Source: an uncultured Bdellovibrionales bacterium (lineage in GTDB: Bacteria; Patescibacteriota; Minisyncoccia; Moranbacterales; UBA1568). Taken from it: DNA of 64,000 bases. A program made the position numbers and the translations under genes. The DNA is taken from assembly GCA_964436855.1 (NCBI GenBank), contig CAYTED010000004.1, positions 3,627-67,626 of the forward strand. The letters run 5' to 3'. Under the pieces are notes generated by a model, which did not search any database, was not told where the DNA came from, and saw only the letters and a list, made by a program, of their open reading frames with translations. Numbering within the stretch: the first letter of the stretch is position 1; every line of letters begins with the position of its first letter. Below are positions 3,094 through 62,232 of this stretch, one piece after another.

Positions 3094-3924
3094 ATTTTTC
3101 TTTCTTTTTAACGAAAAATACATTCCTCTTTCTTTGTACGCACAAAGAAAGAAAAGTATCGTCCTGCGTTTTGCTGTGAAAGCTCTTTCGATTCACTTCG
3201 CTCAATGTCCGTCTGCCGTTTCACTTCCTACTTACGAAAGGTGTCCTTCAGAACGCTTCACTTCATCTCGCATCTTTTGTAAAGCTTCACTCAACGGACG
3301 ATGTATTTTTGAAATCGACCGCAAGCGAAGTATCGAAAGAAATATCGATGAAGCGAAGGAAAAAGAAGCTCCAAAGGAGGAAGCAAAGCGCCTCTGGAGT
3401 TTCTTCCGAAGCGAGTCGAATATTTCTCGATACGAAGCGCAGGGAGAGAGTTTTTCTTTGCATACTTTCTTTTTTCGGAAAAAAAGAAAGTATGAAGAAG
3501 AAATGATCAGAGAAAATGAAAAAGGGTCGACCGAAGTCGAACCCTTTATTCGAAAAGCTTCTCTACCGATGCCTGTGCTTGTGCCGAATTCCGAAGCCCA
3601 TGTGGATCACACGACGACTTCCCTGCCTACTACCACCATTGTCGGTGGGGCGAGGAAGAACATGTCTCCCATTCTCACCCGCAACCGAGGCGACTGGATG
3701 ATACAGTACTACCGTTGTTTGTTGTAGACCTCCAGCTTTGCGCATAGCGTTTTCTCTCCTTTGCATCGCAATACAACGAAATTCCTTGAAAAGACAAACC
3801 GTAACATTGACGGGCAAGGCTCCTCAAGGGCCAAAAAAGAAATGCTAATGTATCCCTTTATAGCAACTTTCAAAAATCTTTGCAAGAGACAGTGAGCCGT
3901 TTCAAAAAAGAGCTGTTCTCTCCC

Positions 3925-5697
3925 TTACTTGCGACGTATTTTTTCCGTCACCCAAAACTCCCCAAAGTATTTCCCAAACAAGAGCCGTGTCTGCGAATCA
4001 AGCGCCGGAAACGCCGAAAGAAACGCGATCAATGGCGAGATAATCCATTGGAGAAACATCAAGATATATCGCGACCAGTGATACTTTTCCGGTTTCGGCG
4101 GAAGCGACACCATCGAAAGCGGCACCGAAACCGCCATACCCATCATCGCAAGCGTCATCAATGTTTGCGTGACAAGCGGAAGGTTGTGCGCAAGAAGCCC
4201 CTCACGAAATGCCTCTCCCCCGAGAACAAGCGGCAACCATCCGAGAAACGCAAGAATAAATGAAGTCGTCGCCCATGAGTGATGTCCCTCGATCATTTCA
4301 AAAGTAACGCGGATCTTCACACGAAGCGGAACATTCGGATTCGGCCACACCGCGCGAAGCGTAACCGGCCAGTTCTCGATTCCATACGCCCAACGCCGAA
4401 GCTGCTTGTACTGATTCTTGATCGTCTTCCAGTACGTCTCCGCAAGCACCGCATCGAGCGACACCGGAAGATGAATCGGCTTCACCTCATAATCCCCATT
4501 GAAGTATGAGAGGCATTTCCAATAAATCACCGAGTCTTCACTGATCATATTGAGCGGCCAAAAACCAACCTTCACTAACGTATCAAATGATTCCGAGTGC
4601 GAAGAAAACGTTACCATTTCCCGACGAGTACTCTGATAAAGATGCCAAAACGACGACCCTGTCACCGCGAGCCGAACAAACGCGTTCGTATCCCACAAGT
4701 TATTGTGATACACCGGGATCGGCTGATACGCGCGCCGGTGTCGCTTCGGATCAGTGATAAACGCGTAGGAGAGCGCAGCAAAATATTCCGGATGCGCCAC
4801 CGTATCGCAATCAAAATTCGAAAAAATAACCCGCTTGTAATCAATCTTCCGTTCATCGAAATACGCCATCAGGTATCGCGCGGCAAACGCCGCATTGGAC
4901 GCCTTGCACTTCATCTCGTTTGCCGCGACGATATGCGTCGTTACGATAAAATCACGGAACTTCCCCGCAAATGTGTTTGTAAGATATTCCACTTTCGGAA
5001 TACGCGTCATCGGATTTTCTCGCTCTTCCGTCGCGAGCACTACAATCATTTGTTCTTTGGGAAAGTTCGTTTCAAGAAGCGATCGGATAGCCGGCTCAAT
5101 AATTTCAGCCGACTCATTTGCCGTCGGAAGAAGAACGACATGAATCACATCTCGCCAGTCAAGTATTTCTTTCTCGATCGGAACAAGCGATTCCACTTCT
5201 TCGAGGTATCGTTTGGTTTTTACGATCGATCGACGAACGATACAACGCTCCCGTAAATGAAAAAACGGAAGTTCTCGAAGCGCATTTCGATATCCGTCGA
5301 TACGTTCCTGTAAGAGTTTCGCATACACGTTTGGATGAACAATATTCTGACATCGCTCCCACCAATCAATCTTCTTTCCCTCGCGAAGCATAAAATGCCC
5401 CTTGAGCGAATAGTACGAAATAAATATCGTCCGATAAATCCAATAGATATCAAAAAGAATAATAAAAACGGCCGCCCATACCGGCTTCAAAAAAGAAAGG
5501 AGAAGCATTCCAAGGACGGTCGCCCACGAAAGCATTCCCGGAATCATTTCGAGCGTTCTTTGCGCCAGTCTCCCCCACTTTTCCGTTGTTTTCGGGTCAG
5601 GAAAATGAAAATTCGGATCCATAATATTCAGCTTTAGAATACCGCGTATCGTACCGCAAATCCACCGATCTGTCCATGCAGCAACCATATTCAGCAA
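3925..5697 (-). CDS. Membrane-embedded family-2 glycosyltransferase, processive beta-glycan (cellulose-synthase-like) type
   Basis: DCD (DxD) motif, SED (TED-like) motif and QLRRW (QxxRW) motif. N-terminal and multiple C-terminal TM helices. True start may be the internal Met near 5622. Confidence 0.75.
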   Translation of the reverse strand: MLNMVAAWTDRWICGTIRGILKLNIMDPNFHFPDPKTTEKWGRLAQRTLEMIPGMLSWATVLGMLLLSFLKPVWAAVFIILFDIYWIYRTIFISYYSLKGHFMLREGKKIDWWERCQNIVHPNVYAKLLQERIDGYRNALRELPFFHLRERCIVRRSIVKTKRYLEEVESLVPIEKEILDWRDVIHVVLLPTANESAEIIEPAIRSLLETNFPKEQMIVVLATEERENPMTRIPKVEYLTNTFAGKFRDFIVTTHIVAANEMKCKASNAAFAARYLMAYFDERKIDYKRVIFSNFDCDTVAHPEYFAALSYAFITDPKRHRRAYQPIPVYHNNLWDTNAFVRLAVTGSSFWHLYQSTRREMVTFSSHSESFDTLVKVGFWPLNMISEDSVIYWKCLSYFNGDYEVKPIHLPVSLDAVLAETYWKTIKNQYKQLRRWAYGIENWPVTLRAVWPNPNVPLRVKIRVTFEMIEGHHSWATTSFILAFLGWLPLVLGGEAFREGLLAHNLPLVTQTLMTLAMMGMAVSVPLSMVSLPPKPEKYHWSRYILMFLQWIISPLIAFLSAFPALDSQTRLLFGKYFGEFWVTEKIRRK

Positions 5698-7062: not shown

Positions 7063-7536
7063 TCACAGGAGCGCTGCTCCGGTAGTGATCACAAGGAAAA
7101 AAACCAGAATCCCGAAAAGTATCAGGACCCATCGCTTATCCCAAGACTCCTTTCCATTTTCCTCGGGCGAACGGGAATCGAAATTGGCATAGAGCCACCA
7201 CAGAACATACCGCGACCCTACCCCGAGAACCGTCGCGATAAGCGCGATAAGGGTCGGGTCAAACTGGAACGGCGCTTCCCCTGGGAAAAAAAACGCCACC
7301 ACCAATACCAAAAGAGACAACCACTGAACAAGAAAAGTCCGGTATTCCTTCTCATTCGATGCCCGCCCCTTACGAGCCTCACTTTCAAGCATTATTGCTG
7401 GAATAGCAAACACCATACTAACAATGGCAAACGCAATGAAAACCGCATTTATCCACTCACCCATCTCTGTCTCCTGGTTGTCAAGTCGCGAGAAAAGTCT
7501 CGTGAAAACTCTTTGAGAAAAAACAAGTAGCCCCAA
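7063..7536 (-). CDS. Hypothetical membrane protein
   Basis: Three to four predicted TM helices. No motifs. Probable start at the internal Met (MGEWINAVF). Confidence 0.4.
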   Translation of the reverse strand: MGLLVFSQRVFTRLFSRLDNQETEMGEWINAVFIAFAIVSMVFAIPAIMLESEARKGRASNEKEYRTFLVQWLSLLVLVVAFFFPGEAPFQFDPTLIALIATVLGVGSRYVLWWLYANFDSRSPEENGKESWDKRWVLILFGILVFFLVITTGAALL

Positions 7537-7599
7537 GGGGAGTCGAACCCCTCTTACCAGGATGAAAACCTGATGTCCTAGCCGATAGACGATGGGGCC
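7528..7599 (-). tRNA. tRNA-Glu (anticodon TTC)
   Basis: 72-nt cloverleaf by hand. Acceptor GGCCCCA/TGGGGCT. T-loop GGGGTTCGACTCCCC. Anticodon loop TTTTCAT. Confidence 0.85.
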
Positions 7600-7752
7600 A
7601 AATTTGGAAACACAACAAAAAAACAGCGAAACACTGCAAGCACATCATAGCATAAAATCACCTTTACGCAAGGCGGCTCGTCTCTTTTTCTTAAGCACCC
7701 TTTTAATACCCTGCTTTATGCTCTATACTCCATACCTTATACTTCCATATAT

Positions 7753-8991
7753 ATGAAAATTCTCTCTATCGAAACTTCTTGCGACGAAACCGCCGCCGCC
7801 ATTGTCGAAAAGCAAGGCGAGAATGTTTCCATACACGCAAGCGTCGTCTCTTCGCAGATCGACCTCCATGCCAAATATGGCGGTGTCGTCCCCAATCTCG
7901 CCGCGCGAGAACATACAAAAAATATCGTCCCGGTCATCGAAGAAACTCTCGCGGAAGCGAAATGTACCCCAAGCGATATTGATCTCATCGCGGTTACCCA
8001 GGGGCCCGGCCTTATCCCCGCCCTCCTCGTCGGCACAACCGCCGCGAAAACACTCTCGTGCGTTTGGAAAAAACCATTAATTGGAATACACCACATCGAG
8101 GGACATATCTACGCCAATTTCATTGGCAATAACCAATTACCAATCCGCCAGCTGACGGACAAGATACAAACAAATCCCAATAATCAAATTTTAAATTCGA
8201 AAATTCATTCATTAGAGATTGATTCAAAATTCGAAAATCAAAATTCGAAATTCCCCCTAGTAGCTCTCGTCGTCTCCGGCGGACACACAGAACTCATATT
8301 GATGCGCGATCACTTCGACTACGAAATTCTCGGCGAAACGGAAGACGATGCTGTCGGTGAATGTTTTGACAAGGTCGCGCGTATGCTCGGCCTCCCCTAT
8401 CCCGGAGGCCCGGCCGTCGCCAAACGTGCCGATACATTTCACTCTTCCTCCTCCTCTGCCCGAGGGGAGGTGTCGAGTCTTCGAGACGGAGGGGTGGGAG
8501 ATTCCAAATTCCAAATTCCAGATTCTCACTTTCAATTTCCTCGTCCCATGATCAATTCCGGCGATTACCGATTTTCTTTCTCCGGCCTCAAAACATCCGT
8601 TCTCTATTTTCTCAAGAAAAATGAAGAAAAAATGAAAGATGATGCTTTCATTGACGAAGTCTGCTCTGAATTTCAAGAAGCGGTCGTGGATGTATTGGTA
8701 ATAAAATCGAAACGGGCAATCGAAGAATTCCGACCGAAAACCTTCGTCATCGCCGGCGGTGTCTCGGCCAATGTTCGATTACGTAACCGATTACGTAATA
8801 TGATCGAGACCGAATTTCCCGACACCACATTTACCATGCCGGAATTTGAGTACTCACTCGACAACGCCGTCATGATCGGCGCCGCCGCCGCCTTCCGCTA
8901 CGATCGCATGAGCGACAAGCAAAAATCCGAACTCAAAAACAACTGGCAAACCCTCGAAGCAAGCGCCAGCCTCACGCTTTCCAATCTATGA
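7753..8991 (+). CDS. tsaD: tRNA N6-adenosine threonylcarbamoyltransferase TsaD (Kae1/Gcp), carrying two in-frame repeat-derived insertions
   Basis: N-terminus MKILSIETSCDETAAAIV. HHIEGH metal motif. VSGGHTEL, FSFSGLKT and AGGVSAN motifs. 412 aa versus about 340 typical. Extra segments map to 8136-8252 and 8437-8530. Confidence 0.9.
   Translation: MKILSIETSCDETAAAIVEKQGENVSIHASVVSSQIDLHAKYGGVVPNLAAREHTKNIVPVIEETLAEAKCTPSDIDLIAVTQGPGLIPALLVGTTAAKTLSCVWKKPLIGIHHIEGHIYANFIGNNQLPIRQLTDKIQTNPNNQILNSKIHSLEIDSKFENQNSKFPLVALVVSGGHTELILMRDHFDYEILGETEDDAVGECFDKVARMLGLPYPGGPAVAKRADTFHSSSSSARGEVSSLRDGGVGDSKFQIPDSHFQFPRPMINSGDYRFSFSGLKTSVLYFLKKNEEKMKDDAFIDEVCSEFQEAVVDVLVIKSKRAIEEFRPKTFVIAGGVSANVRLRNRLRNMIETEFPDTTFTMPEFEYSLDNAVMIGAAAAFRYDRMSDKQKSELKNNWQTLEASASLTLSNL
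8185..8252. repeat. AT-rich AAAATTCGAAAAT-type repeat block, inside the tsaD coding sequence (insertion 1)
   Basis: aaattcgaaaattcattcatt...gattcaaaattcgaaaatcaaaattcgaaattc. Translates as NSKIHSLEIDSKFENQNSKF in frame. Confidence 0.6.
8444..8500. repeat. Copy of the two-hairpin palindromic repeat family, in-frame inside tsaD (insertion 2)
   Basis: tcctcctcctctgcccgaggggagg tgtcgagtcttcgagac ggaggggtggg. Aligns with copies at 9761, 10174, 44598 and 45131. It is followed by attccaaattccaaattcca. Confidence 0.6.
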
Positions 8992-9728
8992 ATGTCACAC
9001 CGATAAAAACCGAAAAGGTATCTCCAAACGAGCAGACACTCATTTCTGTTCTCGACCGAAATCTCGAGCATTTTCCAGATCACTCTATCCTCGCTATCAG
9101 TGCAAAAATCATTTCCCTTTGTGAAGGTCGCATTGCCGATCTTTCCAAAGACAAAGAAGCTCTCATAAAGCAAGAGGCCGATTATTTCCTCCCAAAAAAA
9201 TTCCGCAAACACAAAGCCTCCGGAACTATCATTCATCACGCTTTCATTGGCGCGGCCGGCATCGATGAAAGCAATGCTGCCGGACACTATGTTCTTCTTC
9301 CAAAGGATCCACAACAAGCTGCCAATACCATTTATCAATACTTAAAAAAACGTTTCAATGTGAAACGCGCTGGCGTACTGATTACCGATAGTCATTCCAC
9401 TCCGATGCGACGTGGGGCTTCCGGTATAGCTCTTGCTTATCGCGGCTTCATAGGGCTCAAAGACTACCGAGGCAAACCAGACGTCTTCGGTCGAAAACTC
9501 ATTATGGAGCAAGCCAACATCGCCGATGCACTTGCAGCAACCGCTGTCCTTATGATGGGCGAAGGTGACGAGCAAACACCCCTCGCGCTCTTTGAAAACA
9601 TTCCAAATATCACTTTTAGCAATACCGCTCCGACCAAAAAAGAACTGGGTCAATTCTTCGTCGACCTCGAAGACGATATTTTTTTCCCGATCATCAACTT
9701 CAAACACCTCAAGAAAACAAAATTCTAG
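8988..9728 (+). CDS. CofE-family protein (F420-0:gamma-glutamyl ligase-like fold, PF01996-like)
   Basis: Shared blocks AISAKIISLCEGR, GAAGIDESNAAG..VLLPKDP, ITDSHSTPMRRGASGIALAYRG..LKDYRG and ADALAATAVLMMGE. Start overlaps the tsaD stop (ATGA). Confidence 0.7.
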   Translation: MNVTPIKTEKVSPNEQTLISVLDRNLEHFPDHSILAISAKIISLCEGRIADLSKDKEALIKQEADYFLPKKFRKHKASGTIIHHAFIGAAGIDESNAAGHYVLLPKDPQQAANTIYQYLKKRFNVKRAGVLITDSHSTPMRRGASGIALAYRGFIGLKDYRGKPDVFGRKLIMEQANIADALAATAVLMMGEGDEQTPLALFENIPNITFSNTAPTKKELGQFFVDLEDDIFFPIINFKHLKKTKF

Positions 9729-9760
9729 ACAAGTAAAAATCCCCCATATCATCAAGCCTT

Positions 9761-9818
9761 CCCGCTCCTCTTTTTTAAAAGGGGAGCTGTCACGTACTCG
9801 TGACTGAGGGGTTATACA
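9761..9818. repeat. Palindromic two-hairpin repeat, upstream copy flanking the DUF559 gene
   Basis: gctcctctttttt-aaaaggggagc hairpin plus gtcacgtactcgtgac hairpin plus tgaggggtta. Ends 7 nt before the DUF559 ATG. Confidence 0.6.
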
Positions 9819-9825
9819 GAAAACC

Positions 9826-10176
9826 ATGACACAGATAAGCACCCTCGAGCTGCTCAAGACCAAGCGAAAAACTTTAAGAAAATCTGCAACGCCACAGAAA
9901 ATTATTCTCTGGTCGAGACTTCGTCGAAATCAGCTTGGCATCAAGTTCCGAAGACAACATTCCATCGGAAACTACATTCTTGATTTTTACTGCTCAGAGA
10001 AAAAACTTGCTATCGAACTCGATGGTTGGCAACACAAGGAAAATAAACTATACGATAACGAAAGGACGGCTTTCTTACATGATTTGAACATTCGAGTACT
10101 TCGGTTTTGGAATAATGAAATCAATGATAATCTCGAAGGAGTCATATCAAAAATAATCGAGGCACTCAAACCCTAA
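9826..10176 (+). CDS. DUF559 endonuclease-domain protein (Vsr/restriction-endonuclease-like fold)
   Basis: 116 aa with the canonical DUF559 pattern LRKSATPQKIILWSRLRRNQLGIKFRRQHSIGNYILDFYC..KLAIELDGWQH...RTAFLHDLNIRVLRFWNNEI. Confidence 0.85.
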   Translation: MTQISTLELLKTKRKTLRKSATPQKIILWSRLRRNQLGIKFRRQHSIGNYILDFYCSEKKLAIELDGWQHKENKLYDNERTAFLHDLNIRVLRFWNNEINDNLEGVISKIIEALKP

Positions 10177-17271: not shown

Positions 17272-17583
17272 TCAGACATTCTTTTTCTCACCGTCGATTT
17301 TCCGAATAATATCCCGCATCAAATATACGCCCACAAAAAAGAAAATGCTCGCGATAAGTTTTGAGACAAGGGAGGCGAGCGCGACATATCCCCTATTCGG
17401 AACCATCCCGACAGTCTCGGAAACAATCAGGAAAAAAATCGCCCAACCGAAAAATTTGTACGATGCGTCAAGCTCCATTTCCACCCGCCAAATAACGCCG
17501 ATCGCAAAGAGAAGCGCAAAAAAAAGCGTAACAATCGTCGCAAGCGAAAGAAAGAGGAGGAAAAGTTCCATATTCATCCCCAC
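17272..17583 (-). CDS. Hypothetical small membrane protein
   Basis: Two to three TM helices. No motifs. Confidence 0.3.
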   Translation of the reverse strand: MGMNMELFLLFLSLATIVTLFFALLFAIGVIWRVEMELDASYKFFGWAIFFLIVSETVGMVPNRGYVALASLVSKLIASIFFFVGVYLMRDIIRKIDGEKKNV

Positions 17584-19025
17584 ACCCCCTTTCCTTGACC
17601 AAAAAATCCGAATCGCTCAAAATGCCGCTCGGTTATTCGTCGTACCGAGTGCACAAAGTACCAGTACTCACGCGCAAAAAGAAGTATCCACAAGAAAAAG
17701 AGGGTCAATAACACAAGGAAAAACCATCCGATCCTTTGTGCGACTTGCGCATACGTGATTGTCTCGCTATTCCCAAGCCTCGCGACCGGATACGGCTGCA
17801 CAGAAAATGAAAGCTCTCGACTCACCGTATACTTGCCCCGCTCCGCATATACCAAAACCCGATACCCCGAAACCGCGTCAACCCAGAGTGGTATTTTTAT
17901 ATCCCGGGAAAAAGATTGGTCGGAAAAATCTCGAATTTCAGGAATAAGCCGCGACACTTCTCTCCCGGAAGGATCGAGTACAACGTACGAAAAAGCGATC
18001 GGATCCGTATTCTCATCGGAAAACGCCGCATTCGTATCGACAGTTACCACGATCGGAAGAGAGTCTCCCTGCATCACCTCGTGCATCCCTCCGCGAATCG
18101 CAATGTTAAAATCAAAAGGAAGTGACGATTTTCCCGAAGAAATTTGTTCGAAAGATCCGGTGAAAAAATCTTCCTCTCCCTTCTGATTCGATTTTCCGCG
18201 CCGATGAGAATCATCCGTATTATCGGTTACTTCGAAAGAAATCGAGTCCTCCGATGTTCTTGTTGAATCATCAGGATCGGTAACCGTAACCGTAAAAAGA
18301 TGCTCTCCTTCGGAAAGGCGTACCGGCGACGTCCACTCCCAATATCCGGCGGCATTGGCCGTCAATTGAGCAGCGACGGTATTCGAACTATTCAGAAGAA
18401 TATCAATAATACCGTTCGCGATATTGGTCACTCCGGAAAACCTCGGGGTCCTGTCGGATATGGAAAGATTCGTTCGGAAATTCGTCACATCTTTTCGAAC
18501 AAAGCGCGTTGTTGTAATGGTCGCCGGAGATGCGGACGGACAATCAAGCGTCGTCGCCGAAACCGAATCCGAGACTTCCGTCCCCGGAAACATCGGCCCA
18601 TTCGCCGTCACAACATACGAATAGGTCGTTGATTCGGAAACGGAGATGTCGGAATACTGCGATGTCGCGACCCCGGTAACAAGCGTCACGCTGTCTCGAT
18701 CGATATCCCACGACGATGTCCCGATATCATCCGCCCAGTCAAGTTGCACGCGCGGCGCTCCGGAAACGCACACCGGCGTTGCGGTAACAATGGGTTTTTG
18801 CGGCGGCCCAACCACGGTCGCAAGCACGGTAATATCGGCTCCGATTGCGCGAAGTTTTTCTTGTATATCCTTGACAAAAAATTCCGGACCAAGGAAAAAT
18901 CCCAAAGCAAGGTACGAAACAAAAGCGATACCGACAACAAAAAGATGGAGTCGGATACACCACTGAATAGCCCGATTTGGTTGATGCATAATTTTTTGAG
19001 AGCCTCCCTCAAAATATCGAAACAA
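17574..19025 (-). CDS. Hypothetical exported protein with N- and C-terminal TM anchors and a Ser/Thr/Asp-rich extracytoplasmic region
   Basis: N-terminal TM (FVVGIAFVSYLALGFFLG), about 400-aa hydrophilic region, C-terminal TM (WFFLVLLTLFFLWILLF). Probable start at MHQPNR (18989). Confidence 0.45.
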   Translation of the reverse strand: MFRYFEGGSQKIMHQPNRAIQWCIRLHLFVVGIAFVSYLALGFFLGPEFFVKDIQEKLRAIGADITVLATVVGPPQKPIVTATPVCVSGAPRVQLDWADDIGTSSWDIDRDSVTLVTGVATSQYSDISVSESTTYSYVVTANGPMFPGTEVSDSVSATTLDCPSASPATITTTRFVRKDVTNFRTNLSISDRTPRFSGVTNIANGIIDILLNSSNTVAAQLTANAAGYWEWTSPVRLSEGEHLFTVTVTDPDDSTRTSEDSISFEVTDNTDDSHRRGKSNQKGEEDFFTGSFEQISSGKSSLPFDFNIAIRGGMHEVMQGDSLPIVVTVDTNAAFSDENTDPIAFSYVVLDPSGREVSRLIPEIRDFSDQSFSRDIKIPLWVDAVSGYRVLVYAERGKYTVSRELSFSVQPYPVARLGNSETITYAQVAQRIGWFFLVLLTLFFLWILLFAREYWYFVHSVRRITERHFERFGFFGQGKGVWG

Positions 19026-19281: not shown

Positions 19282-20880
<1,599 letters not shown>

Positions 20881-21171
20881 TAAAGGTGATTGGAATGGAA
20901 AATCATTATGCACCTCCATAATGATTCTTTCCGATCGAAATCGAAAAGTTCCGAAAGAAGATTCTTAGCAAACCACCCGTCTTTTCTCTCCGGTAAACCG
21001 GAAACAAGAGAACGTTTTTCGTTTGCCAAGCATCTTCAAAGAATAAACGAAGATTCACTTTTTCTCCCGAAGGAGAAAATGAAGACTGACCGCAAAAAAT
21101 TGCGATCGTACTGACTTCTTTTTTTAAGAAAACAAAGCAATTGAGAAAATGAATTCCTCTATCGCCAAGCC

Positions 21172-21941: not shown

Positions 21942-22013
21942 AGGGATTTTTTTAAGAGATACCGTTTGAGGAAGCGGGAAAAAGAGGTATAATAAAAGGG
22001 AGATTTTTCAATA

Positions 22014-23504
22014 TTGGCTATGCATCCGAAAATCGGGCGACGTCTTTTTTTCTGGGTATTGGTTTTTTGTTTTCTCGCAACTTCCGTCGCGGTTCTTTTT
22101 TTTACTTTTGGGTACTCTTTTGATACGAAAAGAAAAATCTTCGTACACACCGGATCATTTACTCTGAAAACCGTCCCTCTTGATACGATAGATATTCGGA
22201 TCGATGGCGAGGAAGTCTCCAAACGAAAACTCAATATACTGAACAACGCATATCATGTCTCGGGACAAATGCCCGGAGAGCATTTTATCGAAATAACCGC
22301 ACCGGGATACTCAACCTGGAAAAAAAAGGCGGTCATCGAAAGCGGAAAATCAACCGAGTTCTGGAATATCAATCTGGTAGCGACACACTACACGACATAC
22401 TCCTTTCCGGAAACAAAAAACGTACTCAAAATTTTTCCATCACCAAAAGAAAATCTTCTCGCCATTTTACAGAAAGAAAATACGACTCTCCTCATCAAAA
22501 CATTTGACTCACAACAAGGTGTTATTTCCACCGTCGCACAACTCGAACAAGCAGATTTTCCCGAATCTTTCGAGGAAAATCTCGAGTGGTCACCCGACAC
22601 TACGCTCCTCACGCTTCCCATTTTCTCAAATGGAACCCGAGAATATATTCTTGTGAATAGAGAAAACAATACCGTCGAAAACATCCTCTCTCGATCGGGC
22701 CTGTCGGATATGCGTTTCGCGCGGTGGGATGCACGTCGCAACGGAATCCTCTACTTTTTATCGGGATCAAATTTGTTCGAATGGGACGCCACAGACAAAA
22801 CAGCCTCCCCCCGATTGATCGCTGAACAAATCGACGGCTACGACATTTCCCATCAATATCTCTACACTCTCGACCTCTCAAACGGACTTGTCAAACGATT
22901 TCGATCAGGCACTTCCGTCAATCAATCAGAATTCATTTCCCTCGAACCCATACAAACCGCTCCTGACTCACGCTACGACCTCACCGTTTATGACGAAGAT
23001 CGGATCGCAATTCGCGATCGAAAAACAGGCGAACTCTTTATTCACAATATCGGTGAAAAAGATCACTTCGAAAGAAAGGAGGCCGGGGTGCGTGGCATCC
23101 AATTCTCAAATGACGGCAAAAAACTTCTCTACTTTACCGATCGAGAAATATTCGTATACTTCCTTCGAAAGTGGGATACGCAACCGACACGAAGAGAGGG
23201 AGAAACTCTTCAAATCGCTCGTTTTTCAGAACCGATACGATTTGTCCAGTGGGCAGAAGATTACGAGCACGTTCTCTTTTCGCTCAATACCGAAATCAAA
23301 ACTATCGAGCTTGATGGACGCGATCGACGCATTGCAGAAACGGCAATGACGCTCCATAAAGAGCCACAGCAGTTCTTTGCAAACTTTTCCTCAAACGGCA
23401 TATTCTTGATAGAACAAGATTCCTCCATGCCCCTTTCATATTTTTCTTTCCCGGAAAATATCGATCAACCCGCCATAGAAATACCAAAAGAAAATACCCT
23501 ATGA
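22014..23504 (+). CDS. Membrane-anchored protein with a PEGA-like domain and probable beta-propeller-like extracytoplasmic region
   Basis: N-terminal TM (LFFWVLVFCFLATSVAVLFF). PEGA-like segment IDIRIDGEEVSKRKLNILNNAYHVSGQMPGEHFIEITAPGYSTWKKKAVIESGKSTEFWNINL. Confidence 0.5.
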   Translation: MAMHPKIGRRLFFWVLVFCFLATSVAVLFFTFGYSFDTKRKIFVHTGSFTLKTVPLDTIDIRIDGEEVSKRKLNILNNAYHVSGQMPGEHFIEITAPGYSTWKKKAVIESGKSTEFWNINLVATHYTTYSFPETKNVLKIFPSPKENLLAILQKENTTLLIKTFDSQQGVISTVAQLEQADFPESFEENLEWSPDTTLLTLPIFSNGTREYILVNRENNTVENILSRSGLSDMRFARWDARRNGILYFLSGSNLFEWDATDKTASPRLIAEQIDGYDISHQYLYTLDLSNGLVKRFRSGTSVNQSEFISLEPIQTAPDSRYDLTVYDEDRIAIRDRKTGELFIHNIGEKDHFERKEAGVRGIQFSNDGKKLLYFTDREIFVYFLRKWDTQPTRREGETLQIARFSEPIRFVQWAEDYEHVLFSLNTEIKTIELDGRDRRIAETAMTLHKEPQQFFANFSSNGIFLIEQDSSMPLSYFSFPENIDQPAIEIPKENTL

Positions 23505-24715
23505 CTTCCCGCCTTGAAAAAGGATTCGATATGATTCGATCCGGAAACGGAGACACACGTTCTCCGGAATCAACAATCGAAACACCCGAAAAGAAAGCGC
23601 GCGATATTGCCGAGAAACAAAACGGAAACTACGACGCCATTGTCGAAGAGCTAACGGAAAAAAATCTTTTCGACGCGGAGAAGAAGCGCATCCAATCAAA
23701 TGTTGAATACCAAAAATACCTTCAAGAAGCCTCTTTTCTCACGGAAAAAGAATGGGAAATGCTCACCGTGCTCGAGCTCTTTGATGTGGAAACATTTAAA
23801 CACTGTCTTCGAACCTACGAAAAGGCGAGAGAAATGATCGAGAGTGAGGGAGTTCTCGGAACATACCTGAAACAAAATATCGACCTTGAGCTCCAAGAAC
23901 TCTCTCCATCAAATCGCCTCTCAACCCTCTATCGCGCCTGTCTTTTTCATGATCTTGGAAAAATTGCGGTTCCGAAATCCATTCTCAACAATCCACTCCG
24001 AAACGATGATTGGCTGAAGCTTGGCGAACAATTTTGCACCCACACAGCAAACGCTTGTTATCAAAAAAGGATACGCGAATCACACGGGACACTCCGGGCA
24101 AAAGACATCGTTCCGCTTCGCGTCTGTCTTACGGAAGGAGAGAGTATCAGATTTCAAGTGCTTGGTATCGATGTCGATCTTCCTCTCGGACAGATTATCA
24201 ACGCCATCCATACCAAACAATCCGCCGCTTATCTCGAAAAAGCCGGATTCTTGACCGAGGCGGCACTCGTCAAAGAACACCACTCCGAAACACCCATTGC
24301 GCAAAGAAACTATCCTGTCTCTTCGAGTACAATTACCGTCACAAATATACTTCAAAGCCTCCTTCATACAGCCGATGTCTACGATGCCATGCAGAACGCT
24401 CGCTCCTACAAAGGAGATGAGGGCATATTCGAGACCCTGGCAATATTGATACAAGAAAGCGAGAAAAAATTAATCGATCCGAAACTCCTCTCCCTTCTTC
24501 TTGAGTTCGAACTGAAAAAACTTGCAAGACAAGTGAACACTCGAAACGAAAAATTATCATCCGTAACTCGAGCTTATTTTAAAAATCTTCAATCAAAAAC
24601 CAAAGAAAAGCCATTTGAAACAACATACCAAAAAGAATTGTTTGCCTTAAAAAAAGTTCACCGATTTTTCAAAGAAACCGGTGATTTACGAAAGAAAGCT
24701 TCCATTGAATCTTGA
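23501..24715 (+). CDS. HD-GYP-like (HD superfamily) phosphohydrolase with a degenerate GYP motif
   Basis: FHDLGK (HD) motif. EHHSETPIAQRNYP in place of HHExxDGxGYP. ADVYDAMQNARSYKG matches the ADVYDALTSDRPYK block. Start overlaps the upstream stop (ATGA). Confidence 0.65.
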   Translation: MTSRLEKGFDMIRSGNGDTRSPESTIETPEKKARDIAEKQNGNYDAIVEELTEKNLFDAEKKRIQSNVEYQKYLQEASFLTEKEWEMLTVLELFDVETFKHCLRTYEKAREMIESEGVLGTYLKQNIDLELQELSPSNRLSTLYRACLFHDLGKIAVPKSILNNPLRNDDWLKLGEQFCTHTANACYQKRIRESHGTLRAKDIVPLRVCLTEGESIRFQVLGIDVDLPLGQIINAIHTKQSAAYLEKAGFLTEAALVKEHHSETPIAQRNYPVSSSTITVTNILQSLLHTADVYDAMQNARSYKGDEGIFETLAILIQESEKKLIDPKLLSLLLEFELKKLARQVNTRNEKLSSVTRAYFKNLQSKTKEKPFETTYQKELFALKKVHRFFKETGDLRKKASIES

Positions 24716-50726: not shown

Positions 50727-53700
50727 TTACGGAGTTACTTCCTTCCAATTAAAGTCCCGTATCTGGCTTGCCGAGCAGCTTGCATTTACCGAGCTGCCAA
50801 AGAGACCATTGCAGTTCCATACGTAGGTTTGTCCCGATCGGGAGAAGTTTGCAACAGCGCCACCCGAACAGAGATCGGAACTTGAACTTGAAAGCGCCTC
50901 GAAAGAACCTCCGTTTGCTGATCCGCAAGATCCATTTTCAGAGTTGTGCGTGTATTGGGCGGTAACGGTTTCATTCGTATTGATCGTTTGAGTACAGGTG
51001 GTACCCGCCGGACTATCGCAGCCGGCAAAGCTCTGGAAGGTATAGGGGCCACCGGCGGTCGTGGTGATGGTACGTACTTGTCCGGAAGGGATGTTGGATT
51101 CCGAGATGAGGCCTCCTGTTTTTGTGGTGCTCGTCGCATCAATCCAAGAAACGGTTGCAGCGACACTCGGACAATTAAGGCAGCTTGTCTGTCCGGTAAG
51201 AGTGTATTTGTTCTGGATGGCAGAACAGGCATTCGGGAGAGTGCTTATCCCTCCTCCTGAACCTGAACAGCCCCAGGTAAAGCCAGTACTGGTTCCAGTG
51301 AGAATGCCTCCGGTGAGGGTTCCTGTAGCACAAAGTCCGGGAGAAGAAGGTGAGAGCGTATCAAGGGAAAGCCCGTTCGCAGAACCGCAACTCCCATTTA
51401 TAACGGGAGCGATTACCGCTTGAGCGGTGGACCATGTGGAGAATCCCCCCTTACTGTCTTCAGTGCGAACACGGAAGGTGTAAGTATTAGCTGTAGACCA
51501 GAGATAGGGTGGATTACTCAAAGTCTGACCAGTGCCGGATGCGACGTATCCCGGGCTGGGAGCATAGTAGTCGACAATCGTGTCATTGTTCCAGTCAATG
51601 GCGTAGCGAATTGAGTCATTGTCTGGGTCAGTTCCTTGAAAGGTAAAGGGGTAGCTTGTATTGGTGTTGCCACTGAAGGGTTGCGGGGTGATGGTGGGAG
51701 GGGCGGGATTGTTGTTGGTGGAGATGGCGGTCAAGTTGAAGGTGATGGTTTGGGGCGGAATAATAATTGGATCATGATCCGGCCTATCCCATCCCCATGG
51801 GTAGCTTAATCTCGTATCTAAAGAATAGAAGTAGGGGTTATCCCCCAACCAGCAGTCATCTGCATACAAACACCCGTCATTTATATTATTTCCGGCACTA
51901 TCAAACCAATACCCATATCCCATATTTTGAGAACGAGCATAATAAGTACCAAGAAACCTGTTAAAATAGTATAGCCAAAACTTCGCTCGAGTTTGAGGAA
52001 ATTGAACTGAAACAGATATAATGCCAGGTCCGGTTACGGTACAATTGGCTCCCATACAAGCAACGGGTCCGGTAAAATTGAGTTGTGGAGTAGGTGGATG
52101 AACAGAAAAATAATACCAACCAAAATGAGAATCGTCTCTTGGTGGAGCATCTGCATTTTGAGTCCAGTATCCACAGGGAGTATCCCACCCGGATCCGGTA
52201 ATCCACCACTGAATATCACAATTTTGAAGGCCTTTTGGAATAACAGAAAATGTACTACCGACCGGAATGCTATCACCATCATTCAAAAGGGCCGCACCCT
52301 GTTGAATGGATGCGCCGTACAAAACCGAAGCCTGCCCATTCTCGTATGTCGGATCAATGCTTCCCTGCCTTGGAAATCCCAATGGTAGCGATGTCCACGT
52401 CACACTCTTCGCCTCCACTCCTTTCCCCAGAAGTAATCCCGATGAAAGCACGAGAAGGAAAAGCGTCATTTTCATTCCGGTGTTCATCGGAGTCGTCGGT
52501 CCGTTTCCATCCTGATTCTTGTGGTGTCTCCAGATGAGGAAAAGAATTCCTCCGATCGAGAGAAGAGCGATCAGTCCAGAGAATATGGTTTTGTTGTTTG
52601 ATGCTTTGCTCATTGTTCCCTTTCCGTCGTTTTGCGCCCCGGGACACATCTTCGGATCAATATCCTTGCAACGATAGGTTTGGGTGACGGTATCCACCAC
52701 TTTCCCATTGTTCTTGAGGAGAGTGGTCAAATTCACATTGCCGGTTGTTTTCGTCGGAGTGAAAGACTGTTTCACACCCATCATCGCACCAGTAATGGCC
52801 CCTTCGTAGGTATAGGTGTGGATCGTTTCTCCGGTATCGGCATCGGTGAGAGAAAGGGTGATTTCGTTCCCGTCGATCTTCGGGAGATTGGTGCTGTGCA
52901 CACAGGAGAAGAGAGCGTTTTCTTTTCCTTTCTCAATTGGGAAGCTTGTGATGCTTGGGAAGTTCAGGCGCATCTCGGGAATACCCTCTCGAACAAAGCG
53001 AATATTGAGTATCGATGAGGCATCCTGATCCTTTGCTTCAACAAGAAGATAAGAGACCGAACCCTTTGCTTGGGTAGTGGTGTAGGAGAGAGACTTTGTT
53101 TCTTTTCCTTTGAGCGTGACGAGCTCGGTTTTTTGATCAAGTTTGTTGTCTTGACGAAGTCCGTCCCAATTAAAGAGGGTCCAGATGAGTGCGATTGTTT
53201 TTGGTTCACTCGAAGGGTTTATGAGGGTTACTTCTGTCGTCACGGGTTCATCCTTCGTAAAGTGTGGTGGGAATGCGGAAAAGTGGTAGTCTTTCTTGTT
53301 GAGAGTGACGGTGTGTTTGTTGAAGGTTACTTGGTTTTGATTCGATGAAGTAACCTTGAAGCCTGCTTTGTTTCCCGTCACATCATCGGTGAAGGTAAGC
53401 CCCAGGAGATTAAAGCGGTCATTCGTAACAAAGAAGAAATCCGCCTCGTAATCGCCGCCGGAAAGCGTATTGGGAACATCGTAAGAAAACGAGAAATCTT
53501 TCTCGCTTTTTGCGGGGAGAGCGATATCCTTTCCCGCCTCAAAGAAGGCAACCATCGGGTAGCCGTTCTGGTGAATCTTAGAGTCTTCCCCTTCTTTCTT
53601 AAAGATCTTCACATAAACGGAACCGCTGATGATTGGGTAGGGATTGTCATTCTTCAATTTTCCGGTAAAGGTAAGAGGTACGCCAGGAATGGTTTGTGTC

Positions 53701-53978
53701 AACGTTGGCGAGAGATCGACTTGAATGGAACCAAAGTGATAATCATCAAAGCAGTTACTCGTCCCCTCCGGAAGAATGGCTCCTCCGGCGGAAGGTGCGG
53801 GGAGGGCGGTCCGGATCTTCTCTTTTTCTTCGTCGGTAAGAGTGGTTTGGTCTTTTTGCAGGAGAACTCTTACTTCCGGGGAGAGATTCGTGGGTGTTGG
53901 TTTGGAAATCTGCGCAGAGACAGGAAGAGTGAAAACGAAAACACAAAGAAACGCGAATAGAAAAACTTTTTTATTCAT
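50727..53978 (-). CDS. Large secreted/surface protein (about 1080 aa) with signal peptide, an internal hydrophobic hairpin, and repeated Cys-containing C-terminal modules
   Basis: Signal peptide MNKKVFLFAFLCVFVFTLPVSAQI. Mid-protein TM IFSGLIALLSIGGILFLIW followed by a second signal-like segment MKMTLFLLVLSSGLLLGKGVEA. Two approximately 60-aa repeats CGSANG..LC..G...W.C.G......CSA. Confidence 0.6.
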   Translation of the reverse strand: MNKKVFLFAFLCVFVFTLPVSAQISKPTPTNLSPEVRVLLQKDQTTLTDEEKEKIRTALPAPSAGGAILPEGTSNCFDDYHFGSIQVDLSPTLTQTIPGVPLTFTGKLKNDNPYPIISGSVYVKIFKKEGEDSKIHQNGYPMVAFFEAGKDIALPAKSEKDFSFSYDVPNTLSGGDYEADFFFVTNDRFNLLGLTFTDDVTGNKAGFKVTSSNQNQVTFNKHTVTLNKKDYHFSAFPPHFTKDEPVTTEVTLINPSSEPKTIALIWTLFNWDGLRQDNKLDQKTELVTLKGKETKSLSYTTTQAKGSVSYLLVEAKDQDASSILNIRFVREGIPEMRLNFPSITSFPIEKGKENALFSCVHSTNLPKIDGNEITLSLTDADTGETIHTYTYEGAITGAMMGVKQSFTPTKTTGNVNLTTLLKNNGKVVDTVTQTYRCKDIDPKMCPGAQNDGKGTMSKASNNKTIFSGLIALLSIGGILFLIWRHHKNQDGNGPTTPMNTGMKMTLFLLVLSSGLLLGKGVEAKSVTWTSLPLGFPRQGSIDPTYENGQASVLYGASIQQGAALLNDGDSIPVGSTFSVIPKGLQNCDIQWWITGSGWDTPCGYWTQNADAPPRDDSHFGWYYFSVHPPTPQLNFTGPVACMGANCTVTGPGIISVSVQFPQTRAKFWLYYFNRFLGTYYARSQNMGYGYWFDSAGNNINDGCLYADDCWLGDNPYFYSLDTRLSYPWGWDRPDHDPIIIPPQTITFNLTAISTNNNPAPPTITPQPFSGNTNTSYPFTFQGTDPDNDSIRYAIDWNNDTIVDYYAPSPGYVASGTGQTLSNPPYLWSTANTYTFRVRTEDSKGGFSTWSTAQAVIAPVINGSCGSANGLSLDTLSPSSPGLCATGTLTGGILTGTSTGFTWGCSGSGGGISTLPNACSAIQNKYTLTGQTSCLNCPSVAATVSWIDATSTTKTGGLISESNIPSGQVRTITTTAGGPYTFQSFAGCDSPAGTTCTQTINTNETVTAQYTHNSENGSCGSANGGSFEALSSSSSDLCSGGAVANFSRSGQTYVWNCNGLFGSSVNASCSASQIRDFNWKEVTP

Positions 53979-54382
53979 AGTTCTTTTATTATTCTTTTTT
54001 TTACTGTCCATTGACTCCATAATACTCCTCCCTAAGACATTTATGCAAGCCATTTTGGCCCAAATAAAAAACAAAGACGACCTCGCCACTGTTTTTCAAA
54101 CATTTCAGTTCCGCCAAAATCAATCTGTACACAATTCTCCACGACCGCTTATTTTTGCGTACAACGCTCAAGACAACAGTATCAAATCGTGTTCAGCTTC
54201 TATTGGTTCCCGTTACGCCGGAAGTTTTTGTTGATTAGGTTGTATCAATTTGAGACGATCGTTATGTGTTGATATGGTGTTTTTGAAAAAAGATTGAAAA
54301 AGAAGGAAACACAAAAACAGCCCCGGCGGAATGTCGGGACTGTTATTTCATTTCGTCTCACGCCACATTCTTCACCTCTCGT

Positions 54383-58941: not shown

Positions 58942-59376
58942 TTATCGTTTGCTCCACTGTGGCGCGCGACGAGCTTTCTTTAAGCCCGGCTTCTTTCGTT
59001 CTACCGCACGAGCATCGCGAGAAAGAAATCCTGCCGCCTTGAGAAGCGGTCGGAGTCCGAGATCATGCTTCACGAGTGCGCGAGCGATGCCAAGCTTGAC
59101 CGCATCCGCTTGTCCGCTTTTCCCGCCGCCACGAGCAAGAATCGTCGCTCGAAACTGGCCTTCCGCTCCGATTGTCTTGAGTGGGGCGAGCGCAGAAGCT
59201 TCTTCGCGAGTCGTGGTAAAGTAGGTCTTCAGAAGTTTCCCGTTCACGAGAATATCCGAATCCTTTTCCTTTTCGGAAAGAGGAAATAACCGCACTTCCG
59301 CAACGGCCGTCTTTCGTCGCCCAACCGCGTACACATACCGTGTTTCAATTTTCTTCTCCGCTTGCTTCGTTGCCAT
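58942..59376 (-). CDS. rpsI: 30S ribosomal protein S9
   Basis: Sequence and position. Confidence 0.9.
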   Translation of the reverse strand: MATKQAEKKIETRYVYAVGRRKTAVAEVRLFPLSEKEKDSDILVNGKLLKTYFTTTREEASALAPLKTIGAEGQFRATILARGGGKSGQADAVKLGIARALVKHDLGLRPLLKAAGFLSRDARAVERKKPGLKKARRAPQWSKR

Positions 59377-59403
59377 ACGAGTTCTTCGTCAAAAAGTCAA
59401 AAA

Positions 59404-59823
59404 TCAGTGAGTTATATCGATCTTATGCGTATGATCCGCATTTTCAAAAATAAAAAGTCGCTTTAACATCCGATCCCGAAGAAGGTTTTTCGGGAGCATA
59501 TTGTATATCGCCTGATGCACCACTTTCCGAGAATCCCGCTTCATCGCCTCCTTCAGAGTGCGTGAAGTCATACCACCCGGATATCCGCTGTAGTGATGAT
59601 ACATTTTCTGATCCGCTTTTCGTCCGGTCGCCTGTATACCATCGGAATTAATAAGGACGACATAATCTCCCTTATCGAAATTCGGCTCATAATCAACCTT
59701 CACCTTCCCGGAAAGCACGCCCGCAACCTCGGTCGCAAGACGCCCCAAAACCTTCCCTTGCGCATCAAACAAGTGGAATTGCCTTGTAATCGTTCGTTTT
59801 CCCTTCTGTTCGGTAGTTGCCAT
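59404..59823 (-). CDS. rplM: 50S ribosomal protein L13
   Basis: Sequence and position. Confidence 0.9.
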   Translation of the reverse strand: MATTEQKGKRTITRQFHLFDAQGKVLGRLATEVAGVLSGKVKVDYEPNFDKGDYVVLINSDGIQATGRKADQKMYHHYSGYPGGMTSRTLKEAMKRDSRKVVHQAIYNMLPKNLLRDRMLKRLFIFENADHTHKIDITH

Positions 59824-59842
59824 ACGTTTCTTCGCCTCGCAA

Positions 59843-60208
59843 TTATACAAATTCAATGATTGCCATTCTTGCCGCATCTGATTTTCGGGCCTCAAGCTTT
59901 ATTACTCGCGTATACCCGCTTGAACGATCGGAAAACCGATTTGAAAAATCTCCGGAAAGTTTCCGTACCGCCACCTTCGGAAGTCGCGATTCAAGATCCC
60001 GAAGGACGGAGAGTTTTTTCGACTCATCAGCCTTCAGACGCTTTGCCTTTCCAATAAGAGGGTCAATCAGACGCTTCAATTCCTTCGCCTTCGCTTCGGT
60101 CGTCTTGATCTTTTCTTTCAAAATCAAGCTTCCAAGAAGCGTCTTCAGGAGCGCCTTTCGAACCCGTCTCACTCGATTGAATTTTCTTCCAACACTTCGA
60201 TGATTCAT
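59843..60208 (-). CDS. rplQ: 50S ribosomal protein L17
   Basis: Sequence and position. Confidence 0.9.
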   Translation of the reverse strand: MNHRSVGRKFNRVRRVRKALLKTLLGSLILKEKIKTTEAKAKELKRLIDPLIGKAKRLKADESKKLSVLRDLESRLPKVAVRKLSGDFSNRFSDRSSGYTRVIKLEARKSDAARMAIIEFV

Positions 60209-60244
60209 ACGACTTTCACAGACAATCCCGTTTCGATATTCTGA

Positions 60245-60985
60245 TTATGCTTCCGACTTCTTCGCCTTCTTTTTTGGTTGAGCAGCTTCTTCCGCCACTT
60301 CCTTGGTTTCCATGGCAAGCGTCGAGAATTGTTCGATCAAAATCGAAATCGACTTCGCAAACGCTTCTTCCGGAGAAATACTGCCATCGGTAACCACCTC
60401 AAGCGTAATCTTGTCATAGTCCGTTCGTTTTCCGACACGCATATTTTCCACTTCGAAATTCACGCGCTTGACCGGCGTATAAATCGCATCAATCGCAATC
60501 ATGCCGATTTCCTTCTCGCGCTCCTGCTGTTCGACAGTGACGTATCCGATGCCGGACGCGACATCAATCTCCATTTCCAATTCCGCCTTCTTATCCGAAA
60601 GCGTCGCAATTACCTGTTCCGGATTTACCACCTCAACACCAGAAACAGTTTTAATGTCACCCGCTTTCACAACTCCCTCACCCTTTCCCTTAAGTGAGAG
60701 TCGCACCGGACCTTCTTCGGTCATACGAAAACGAACTTGTTTTAAGTTGAGAATGATATGCACCGCATCCTCCATTACTCCCGGAAGAGTCGTAAACTCA
60801 TGAGATACTCCCTTCATCTTTACAGATACTACGGCCGCGCCCTCAAGCGAAGACAAAAGAATTCGCCGAATCGCGTTTCCAAGTGTCGTCCCATATCCCG
60901 GATAACATCCAAGGATTTCAAACTTCCCGTGAGACGGAGCGATTTCCGTATATTTTGGTGCTTGCGGAAGACTGATTTTTTGCAT
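60245..60985 (-). CDS. rpoA: DNA-directed RNA polymerase alpha subunit, N-terminal domain only (no alpha-CTD)
   Basis: 246 aa. The alpha-NTD dimerisation/assembly domain is recognisable. The protein ends in a Lys/Glu-rich tail without the helix-hairpin-helix CTD. rplQ follows 36 nt later. Confidence 0.85.
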   Translation of the reverse strand: MQKISLPQAPKYTEIAPSHGKFEILGCYPGYGTTLGNAIRRILLSSLEGAAVVSVKMKGVSHEFTTLPGVMEDAVHIILNLKQVRFRMTEEGPVRLSLKGKGEGVVKAGDIKTVSGVEVVNPEQVIATLSDKKAELEMEIDVASGIGYVTVEQQEREKEIGMIAIDAIYTPVKRVNFEVENMRVGKRTDYDKITLEVVTDGSISPEEAFAKSISILIEQFSTLAMETKEVAEEAAQPKKKAKKSEA

Positions 60986-61064
60986 ACCTCTTTATTCTCG
61001 GGCAACCTTTCCCTCCATGGATAGGAGCGCAAAGATGGCTGCGATACGATTAAAAAAATTATGA

Positions 61065-61694: not shown

Positions 61695-61711
61695 AGAAAA
61701 ATAATTTGCAA

Positions 61712-62188: not shown

Positions 62189-62232
62189 ACGAATAAATAG
62201 GATCTCGGATAAGTGTCAATGGTCAATGAATA

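Follow-up and report, generated by a model that had tools for sequence, protein, structure and literature searches.

A GYP-less family of predicted HD-GYP-related phosphohydrolases encoded in some Moranbacteria behind a membrane-anchored Ig-like/beta-propeller protein

The HD-GYP enzymes, represented by PmGH (4MCW), PA4781 (4R8Z) and V-cGAP3 (5Z7C) and grouped under PF13487 and COG2206/COG3437, are the closest described relatives of the protein considered here. Following Galperin and Chou (10.1101/2021.11.05.467447), from whom we take the roles of residues in HD-GYP domains, the PmGH metal ligands are E185, H189, H221, D222, H250, H276, H277 and D305; the Tyr of the GYP motif hydrogen-bonds the substrate phosphate in PmGH, the KPG motif contacts the second base, and an RxY[K/R] motif, which contacts the guanine of cyclic di-GMP (c-di-GMP) in PmGH, is credited with most of the specificity for c-di-GMP. 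Nucleotide second-messenger signalling in the Patescibacteria, or Candidate Phyla Radiation (CPR), appears little explored, and in the full-text literature on HD-GYP in Patescibacteria and on c-di-GMP or GGDEF in the CPR we found no paper addressing the question. Here we describe two adjacent open reading frames (ORFs), ORF1 and ORF2, in a 64-kb stretch of contig CAYTED010000004.1 from an uncultured bacterium of the Moranbacterales, which we refer to as the window. ORF1 codes for a membrane-anchored protein and ORF2 for a soluble HD-domain protein related to the HD-GYP enzymes (Table 1).

We lean, with confidence only a little above even, towards the reading that ORF2 is an active, HD-GYP-derived nucleotide phosphodiesterase, co-expressed with the envelope protein ORF1 in a lineage-specific operon. 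ORF2 would be cytoplasmic, catalytically competent and metal-dependent, would descend from the HD-GYP branch, and would most likely act on a cyclic dinucleotide of the c-di-GMP or cyclic GMP-AMP (cGAMP) type or on the linear 5'-pNpN product, with an insertion of about 58 amino acids (aa) beside the active site probably reshaping substrate access. ORF1 would be a separate, single-pass, outward-facing envelope protein, and in the Moranbacteria lineage the HD gene would sit directly behind it in the same transcription unit. The enzymatic activity and substrate class are predictions, made from ORFs, an overlap, fold models, residue conservation and a distribution of pairing that were observed or computed. 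The fold, the chemistry and the nearest relatives are those already known from HD-GYP enzymes. What is new is a distinct and sizeable family without GYP or KPG, with a conserved insertion of ~58 aa and an N-terminal module of its own, whose named members are found only in Patescibacteria.

Membership of ORF2 in the HD superfamily is clear: Pfam HD (PF01966) matches at 37.0 bits against a cut-off of 22 and recognises 56 of 63 diverse family members that we aligned, and the H...HD...D metal signature of the superfamily (H101, H150-D151, D292) is invariant in all 63. No hydrophobic segment was found by hydropathy, consistent with a soluble protein. The proposed affinity to the HD-GYP subfamily was borne out by single-sequence, profile and structural comparisons. 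The best matches of the single sequence in the PDB are V-cGAP3 and PA4781, both HD-GYP enzymes, and a profile of the 63 sequences matches V-cGAP3 (1.3e-16), PmGH (6.6e-16), PA4781 (8e-8) and PgpH (7e-4). The AlphaFold2 (AF2) model is all-helical, with a predicted local distance difference test (pLDDT) score of 88.7 and a predicted template modelling (pTM) score of 0.89, and the three top Foldseek matches are PA4781 (two chains) and PmGH, with the HD-GYP protein DvhD lower and PgpH at rank 15. PgpH (4S1B) is, like the HD-GYP enzymes, an HD-type cyclic-dinucleotide phosphodiesterase, of the 7TMR-HD class acting on c-di-AMP; its weak profile and fold similarity places it far further from ORF2 than the HD-GYP enzymes, and it is fused to a 7TM receptor and lacks RxYK, whereas ORF2 is soluble.

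Word-indexed searches under-sampled this family, giving 8 HD relatives, or 23 with a profile, and an exhaustive profile search was used instead. It returned 113 representatives of 50% identity clusters at E<=1e-30, matched over nearly their full length. At E<=1e-10 there were 337, and the long tail reached at E<=1e-3, with 26,794, we take to be the wider HD superfamily. The ORF2 family comprises at least 113 clusters at 50% identity, unannotated wherever a source name is available; its sole member with an NCBI name is a 'hypothetical protein', and all members with an organism name are Patescibacteria/CPR. The nearest proteins beyond the family all carry PF13487, and those for which a source name exists have names such as RpfG-family c-di-GMP phosphodiesterase and HD-GYP domain protein. 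Against NCBIfam, ORF2 gave nothing above cut-off, only sub-threshold Cas3-HD and HDIG matches. A known anti-phage defence system was considered and rejected, as PADLOC gives only generic Cas3-HD matches (E~3e-3, 15.9 bits). No paralogues of either ORF1 or ORF2 were found by tblastn against the window.

Conservation of the active site was scored by column counts over the alignment of 63 members, and ligands were counted by alignment and not by model geometry. The HD dyad (FHDLGK, aa 149–154) and the ADVYDAM block (aa 291–297) singled out in the first-pass annotation are both present, and a count of the metal ligands, which it had left to be made, gives all seven of the core HD-GYP set: H101, H150, D151, H237, H260 and D292 are each present in 63 of 63 members and H261 in 62. 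E97, at the H-4 position, is the equivalent of PmGH E185, the third-metal Glu, and with it ORF2 itself carries the complete HD-GYP ligand set (E97, H101, H150, D151, H237, H260, H261 and D292), this position being acidic in only 23 of the 63. The Gly and Lys of HDxGK (G153, K154) are invariant. An RxY[K/R] motif is also present, with R301 and Y303 in every member and K304 in 44, with Arg in five more.

Two other motifs of the HD-GYP enzymes, GYP and KPG, have been lost. The GYP sequence is degenerate in ORF2 (RNYP, aa 269–272), as had been noted, and GYP is not conserved in the family as a whole. At the place of the HHExh(D/N)GxGYP motif ORF2 reads HHSETPIAQRNYP, and the family retains a pattern HH...(Y/F/H)P, in which the two His residues occur in 63 and 62 of the 63 members, Pro in 42 and Tyr in 20, and Gly is absent. 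A KPG motif was not found either, the aligned residues being N164-P165-L166 with a family consensus of N-N-x. ORF2 and the HD-GYP enzymes have in common the fold, the H...HD...H...HH...D ligands, the optional third-metal Glu, the HDxGK Lys, a [A]D-x-x-[D]A-[L] helix and the RxYK motif; ORF2 differs from them in the reduced HHExxDGxGYP, in the change of KPG to NN-x, in the ~58-aa insertion, in a sub-threshold HD_5 score, and in having a helical N-terminus of ~80 aa in place of a REC, GAF or PAS sensor.

The insertion is the main oddity of ORF2 and was absent from the first-pass annotation. The HD dyad and the third His ligand are 86 aa apart, compared with 28 in both PmGH and V-cGAP3, and in the profile–PDB alignments the canonical halves abut where the ORF2-family profile has ~75 extra positions. 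In the AF2 model the inserted region forms helices at residues 168–181, 187–193, 206–209 and 212–220; P205 within it is invariant and R199 occurs in 47 of 63 members. The N-terminal region had been put at 130 aa and called unusual, an overstatement of its length, as helices of the HD domain begin at about residue 82 and the first ligand is H101, leaving an extension of ~80 aa. No Pfam domain matched this extension, and the family alignments show a conserved G-D/N-Y motif in its helices.

The metal centre, intact throughout the family, speaks for an active enzyme; the pocket for the substrate has been remodelled. That ORF2 is instead a catalytically dead HD-GYP-like protein with only a binding or scaffold role we regard as very improbable. 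The degenerate GYP motif would suit such a role, and there are known examples of inactive HD-GYP variants working through contacts with other proteins. Inactivated HD-GYPs characteristically lose metal ligands, however, and here the seven core ligands show little or no variation across 63 members, and the HDxGK Lys none.

Several observations weigh against a phosphodiesterase of the HD-GYP type acting in nucleotide signalling. Pfam HD_5 (PF13487), the model against which the first-pass annotation had proposed that ORF2 be searched, does find it, but at 24.4 bits it falls below the cut-off of 27.2, with only profile positions 35–69 matched; the insertion splits the domain, and PF13487 matches 17 of the 63 family members at E<=1e-3. 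The Foldseek E-values are likewise weak (from 1.5e-2) because of the insertion and extra elements of ORF2. With the GYP Tyr in only 20 of 63 members and KPG replaced, canonical c-di-GMP binding may be altered. Neither the window nor the Moranbacteria flanks yielded a gene for a GGDEF protein, a diadenylate cyclase (DAC) or any other cyclase: a phmmer search of both with two GGDEF proteins found nothing, and ten further proteins of the window, scanned against Pfam, showed nothing related to nucleotide signalling. Finally, the neighbours of the HD family in metagenomic contigs are mostly housekeeping genes, including SerRS, a cytidylyltransferase-like gene, EngB and UMP kinase.

With neighbours drawn mostly from housekeeping and translation genes, a housekeeping nucleotide hydrolase therefore fits these contexts equally well. 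In bacteria with reduced CPR genomes, such an enzyme would remove linear dinucleotides or nanoRNA, (p)ppGpp, or nucleotide by-products of other kinds; we consider it unlikely, yet a serious rival. Family members lie not only among the genes just named but also at ribosomal protein S9/L13 operons, the loss of GYP and KPG and the remodelling of the pocket by the insertion would accord with this reading, as would the lack of a cyclase in the window, and HD-GYP enzymes with the third-metal Glu hydrolyse pGpG to GMP (10.1101/2021.11.05.467447). Weighing on the other side are the invariant R-x-Y of RxYK, with its Lys in 44 of 63 members, in a motif tied to c-di-GMP specificity; the occurrence of GGDEF neighbours in two independent contexts; and a distribution too patchy, at ~25% of Moranbacteria loci, for an essential housekeeping enzyme.

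The GGDEF neighbours lie outside Moranbacteria. In two Falkowbacteria-type loci (L084 and L086) the HD gene stands beside a stand-alone GGDEF gene and CorA, and in L116, one of the metagenomic HD loci, a GGDEF gene (PF00990, 115 bits) is located 1.7 kb downstream of the HD gene. These arrangements hint at a link between the HD family and c-di-GMP metabolism. The gene immediately 5' of the HD gene in L116 and L113, on the same strand, codes for a hemerythrin-domain protein (positions 450–923 and 3909–4352 respectively, both on the + strand), and a different CPR lineage could thus have a c-di-GMP module that responds to O2 or iron. Another member, P0008, has unrelated neighbours. The stand-alone GGDEF proteins of L084 (3689–4363, - strand) and L086 (3688–4380, - strand) are 224–230 aa long and have the signature HGDEF instead of GGDEF; a conserved ORF of 87–90 aa lies between the HD and GGDEF genes, and CorA is downstream.

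If the ORF2 family does hydrolyse c-di-GMP or cGAMP, some ultra-small bacteria would retain a turnover enzyme for these messengers, and the sequence definition of HD-GYP enzymes would be widened beyond the eponymous GYP motif. The residues and boundaries are now defined for expression and assay of the family, and we propose that ORF2 be annotated as an 'HD-GYP-related phosphohydrolase' rather than as a generic HD protein.

We then considered ORF1, which had been described from its sequence as a protein with a single N-terminal transmembrane (TM) segment, a PEGA-like beta-sandwich and a long, probable beta-propeller. There is one hydrophobic segment, at about residues 9–31 (hydropathy peak 2.6), and no other, and both hydropathy and the AF2 model (pLDDT 85.9, pTM 0.82, from a 22-sequence alignment) agree on the N-terminal TM helix. 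A beta-sandwich is present in the model, but its identification as PEGA is marginal, since PF08308 matches ORF1 below the gathering threshold (E=0.049, 14.0 bits vs 20.8); a PF08308 hit is precomputed for many ORF1 homologues. The propeller was also recovered, its ~30 strands being read as ~7 blades in the model, and the best Foldseek match in the PDB is Lp49 of Leptospira (3BWS; E=2e-13), an Ig-like domain followed by a 7-bladed propeller. Many generic propellers follow, including ODA16 and LRP6, with Lp49, ODA16 and LRP6 spanning E-values of 1e-13 to 1e-9.

ORF1 and Lp49 thus share an ectodomain in which an Ig-like beta-sandwich precedes a propeller of ~7 blades, although with ~12% identity the likeness is architectural only, ORF1 differs from Lp49 in being anchored through an N-terminal TM helix, and the function of Lp49 is itself unknown. 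TolB-like envelope propellers offer a further comparison, as some ORF1 homologues are auto-annotated as 'Tol biopolymer transport system component' or 'WD40 repeat protein'. Ahead of the TM helix there is only MHPKIGRR, which leaves a cytoplasmic part of ~8 residues or fewer; by the positive-inside rule, nearly the whole of ORF1 would be extracytoplasmic, with the Ig-like domain and the propeller facing outward. A word-indexed search gave more than 205 homologues, several of them named 'PEGA domain-containing protein [Candidatus Moraniibacteriota]', and 226 confirmed stretches were found in one-genome-per-species contigs, mostly labelled Moraniibacteriota. This family of ~490-aa proteins is nearly universal in Moranbacteria-type Patescibacteria. 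We propose the annotation 'membrane-anchored Ig-like/beta-propeller protein'.

The two genes lie on the same strand, and the junction sequence agrees with the ATGA overlap reported previously. ORF1 may start at a TTG at 22014 (496 aa) or at the ATG at 22020 (494 aa), the latter being the start of the database copy P0009. A promoter-like site is located only 5' of ORF1 and not between ORF1 and ORF2, with an AAGGGAG Shine-Dalgarno-like stretch between it and the ORF1 start; the promoter call is a consensus match only, and promoter-like sites in the region are not above shuffled controls. No terminator-like site was found on the + strand between ORF1 and ORF2, and we infer that the two genes form one transcription unit and are co-expressed in a lineage-specific operon. 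Inspection of the sequence before the ORF2 ATG shows no Shine-Dalgarno-like stretch. Because ORF2 has no ribosome-binding site of its own and overlaps ORF1 by ATGA, it is probably translated through termination-reinitiation coupling to ORF1.

To assess the conservation of the pair, an ORF1 alignment was scanned against species-representative genomes, 80 loci were kept, and their flanks were then searched with the HD-family profile. The HD gene is directly downstream of ORF1 and on the same strand in 17 of these 80 species-level loci, and three further loci (L001–L003) have the pair; HD homologues with 54%, 37% and 35% identity to ORF2 each lie directly 3' of an ORF1 homologue of ~490 aa, with a divergent membrane gene (~167 aa) also present upstream of it. 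Counting the window with these 17 and three loci, there are 21 paired places, and in 20 of them the gap between the ORF1-family stop and the HD start is between -4 and +43 nt. Only L063 departs from this, its HD ORF opening ~230 nt past the stop and having no in-frame start nearby. The ATGA junction is seen only in the window and in its closest relative, L001.

Conservation of the pair, which the first-pass annotation had asked to be checked, is partial: it recurs in related genomes, but an HD gene is missing from ~75% of ORF1-family loci, and the next real gene there is mostly convergent (for example, a ribosomal-protein gene) or unrelated. Hidden HD remnants in these loci were considered and rejected, since the + strand ORFs present match neither Pfam nor the HD profile and look like antisense shadows. 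Loci with an HD gene cluster within the ORF1 tree, and no ORF1 homologue was found near HD genes outside Moranbacteria, either in 37 metagenomic HD loci, identified with a 12-sequence sub-alignment of the family, or in three other contexts. The pairing is real but limited, and restricted to the Moranbacteria lineage. A generic HD hydrolase with no GYP affinity, in a pairing that is not conserved, is not what we observe, as the HD-GYP affinity was found and the pair recurs.

Among the HD proteins linked to ORF1 there are two deep clades, A and B, with that of the window in A, and the pairwise identities of the ORF1 and HD proteins are correlated (Mantel r=0.48, reached by 0 of 5000 permutations). 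In L057, clade A and clade B genes stand in tandem behind the ORF1 homologue (7453–8697 and 8797–9966, + strand), as if a tandem duplication had taken place here long ago.

The first-pass annotation had raised the idea of an unconventional two-protein sensing module. In such a module an external ligand would bind to the propeller of ORF1, and the signal would pass through the TM helix to switch ORF2 on or off. We consider this improbable. It would make sense of the tight same-strand adjacency, which recurs in the 17 loci and in L001–L003, of the correlated identities, of the occupation of the slot behind ORF1 by two deeply diverged HD clades, both of them in one genome, and of the lack of any sensor domain in ORF2 where HD-GYP domains are normally fused to one. 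The idea is nonetheless weak, and we find it unsupported, because the part of ORF1 within the cytoplasm (~8 residues or fewer) is tiny and ORF2 is soluble, with neither a membrane segment nor a visible amphipathic anchor, most ORF1 genes (~75% of loci) have no HD gene, and the HD family thrives without an ORF1 homologue, as in the 37 metagenomic loci and three other contexts. The constant partner of ORF1 is moreover a divergent membrane protein (~61 of 70 loci), and vertical descent of the local gene order (16S rRNA, membrane gene, ORF1, HD, ribosomal operon), with a later tandem duplication, can account for the adjacency. The presence of two deep HD clades in one slot is the sole observation that could point to a functional tie, and tandem duplication with differential loss explains it equally well, the tandem still being seen in L057.

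Table 1. Positions of genes, domains and signals at the ORF1–ORF2 locus, numbered from the first nucleotide of the window.
Feature	Coordinates	Strand	Description and basis
Small polytopic membrane protein, ~165 aa	21405..21902	-	Divergent from ORF1; 4-5 hydrophobic segments; no Pfam above cut-off
Sigma-70-like promoter candidate	21966..21993	+	TTGAGG-16-TATAAT, 10/12 consensus match, upstream of ORF1
ORF1	22020..23504	+	494-aa single-pass membrane protein; ORF list and >205 homologues
ORF1 TM helix, aa 5-29 of 494-aa form	22032..22106	+	AF2 secondary structure; hydropathy
ORF1 Ig/PEGA-like beta-sandwich, aa 32-118	22113..22373	+	AF2 strands; marginal Pfam PEGA, CarboxypepD_reg; Lp49-like two-domain match
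ORF1 predicted beta-propeller, aa 126-476	22395..23447	+	AF2 pLDDT ~90, ~30 strands; Foldseek
ATGA overlap ORF1/ORF2	23501..23504	+	ORF1 stop TGA 23502-23504, ORF2 ATG 23501-23503; reads ...CCC TAT GAC...
ORF2	23501..24715	+	404-aa soluble HD-domain protein, unannotated HD-GYP-derived family
ORF2 N-terminal extension, aa 1-80	23501..23740	+	aa 1-17 low-confidence, 29-74 four short helices; AF2, alignments
ORF2 catalytic domain first half, aa 82-171	23744..24013	+	E97, H101, H150-D151, G153, K154; 'LNNP' at KPG place
ORF2 helical insertion, aa 172-232	24014..24196	+	Family-specific; exceeds canonical HD-GYP by ~58 aa
ORF2 catalytic domain second half, aa 233-345	24197..24535	+	H237, H260-H261, R269-N-Y-P272, D292, R301-x-Y303-K304
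ORF2 C-terminal helices, aa 346-404	24536..24712	+	Poorly conserved; alignment, AF2

The membrane gene divergent from ORF1 lies directly upstream in ~61 of the 70 ORF1-family loci with enough flank, a figure made up of 49 called by the script's rule and 12 assigned manually because their stop-to-stop coordinates run into the adjacent gene. Its length in the window is counted from the Met aligned with the starts of homologues, the ORF being open back to a TTG at 21941. This protein is far more constant than the HD gene and may be the real functional partner of the ORF1 propeller protein. A bolder proposal, which takes up the earlier suggestion of novel specificity and which we rate as unlikely, is that the GYP-less, insertion-bearing family constitutes a CPR-specific phosphodiesterase of non-canonical specificity, acting on some other cyclic or linear oligonucleotide messenger, and that in Moranbacteria it is tied to an envelope module of the polytopic membrane protein and ORF1, through which surface events would control a nucleotide signal in episymbiotic bacteria with minimal genomes.

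Downstream of ORF2, and convergent with it, are RuvX, Map, Adk, SecY and a ribosomal-protein operon. The genes present and the best homologues assign the window to a Moranbacteria-type member of the Patescibacteria/CPR. In the window the pair abuts this RuvX-Map-Adk-SecY end of one ribosomal operon, and the S9/L13/L17/rpoA operon is ~34 kb from the pair (58942–62622, - strand), whereas in the relatives L002 and L003 the HD gene abuts that second operon. This indicates a local rearrangement that has kept the trio of membrane gene, ORF1 and HD gene intact.

On the other side of the locus there is a complete, lone 16S rRNA gene (19284..20884, - strand), and no 23S or 5S rRNA was found within the window. 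The 16S match extends over 1601 nt against a model of 1533 positions, indicating small insertions. L002 has a LAGLIDADG ORF ~3 kb 5' of the membrane gene, next to ~2.5 kb in which no genes were called and where the rRNA gene may lie. Near the 16S rRNA gene of the window is a second surface-protein locus, with a gene for a 483-aa membrane-anchored protein containing a bacterial Ig-like domain (Big_13; 17574–19025, - strand) followed by a small membrane ORF of 103 aa (17272–17583, - strand). Elsewhere in the window, an F420-0:gamma-glutamyl ligase-like protein (PF01996, 116 bits) is encoded at 8988–9728 (+ strand), in what is apparently a reduced CPR genome, and a 1120-aa ORF without a Pfam match (50727–54089, - strand) coincides with the sole stretch of positive GC skew, +0.04 to +0.09 compared with about -0.15 elsewhere.

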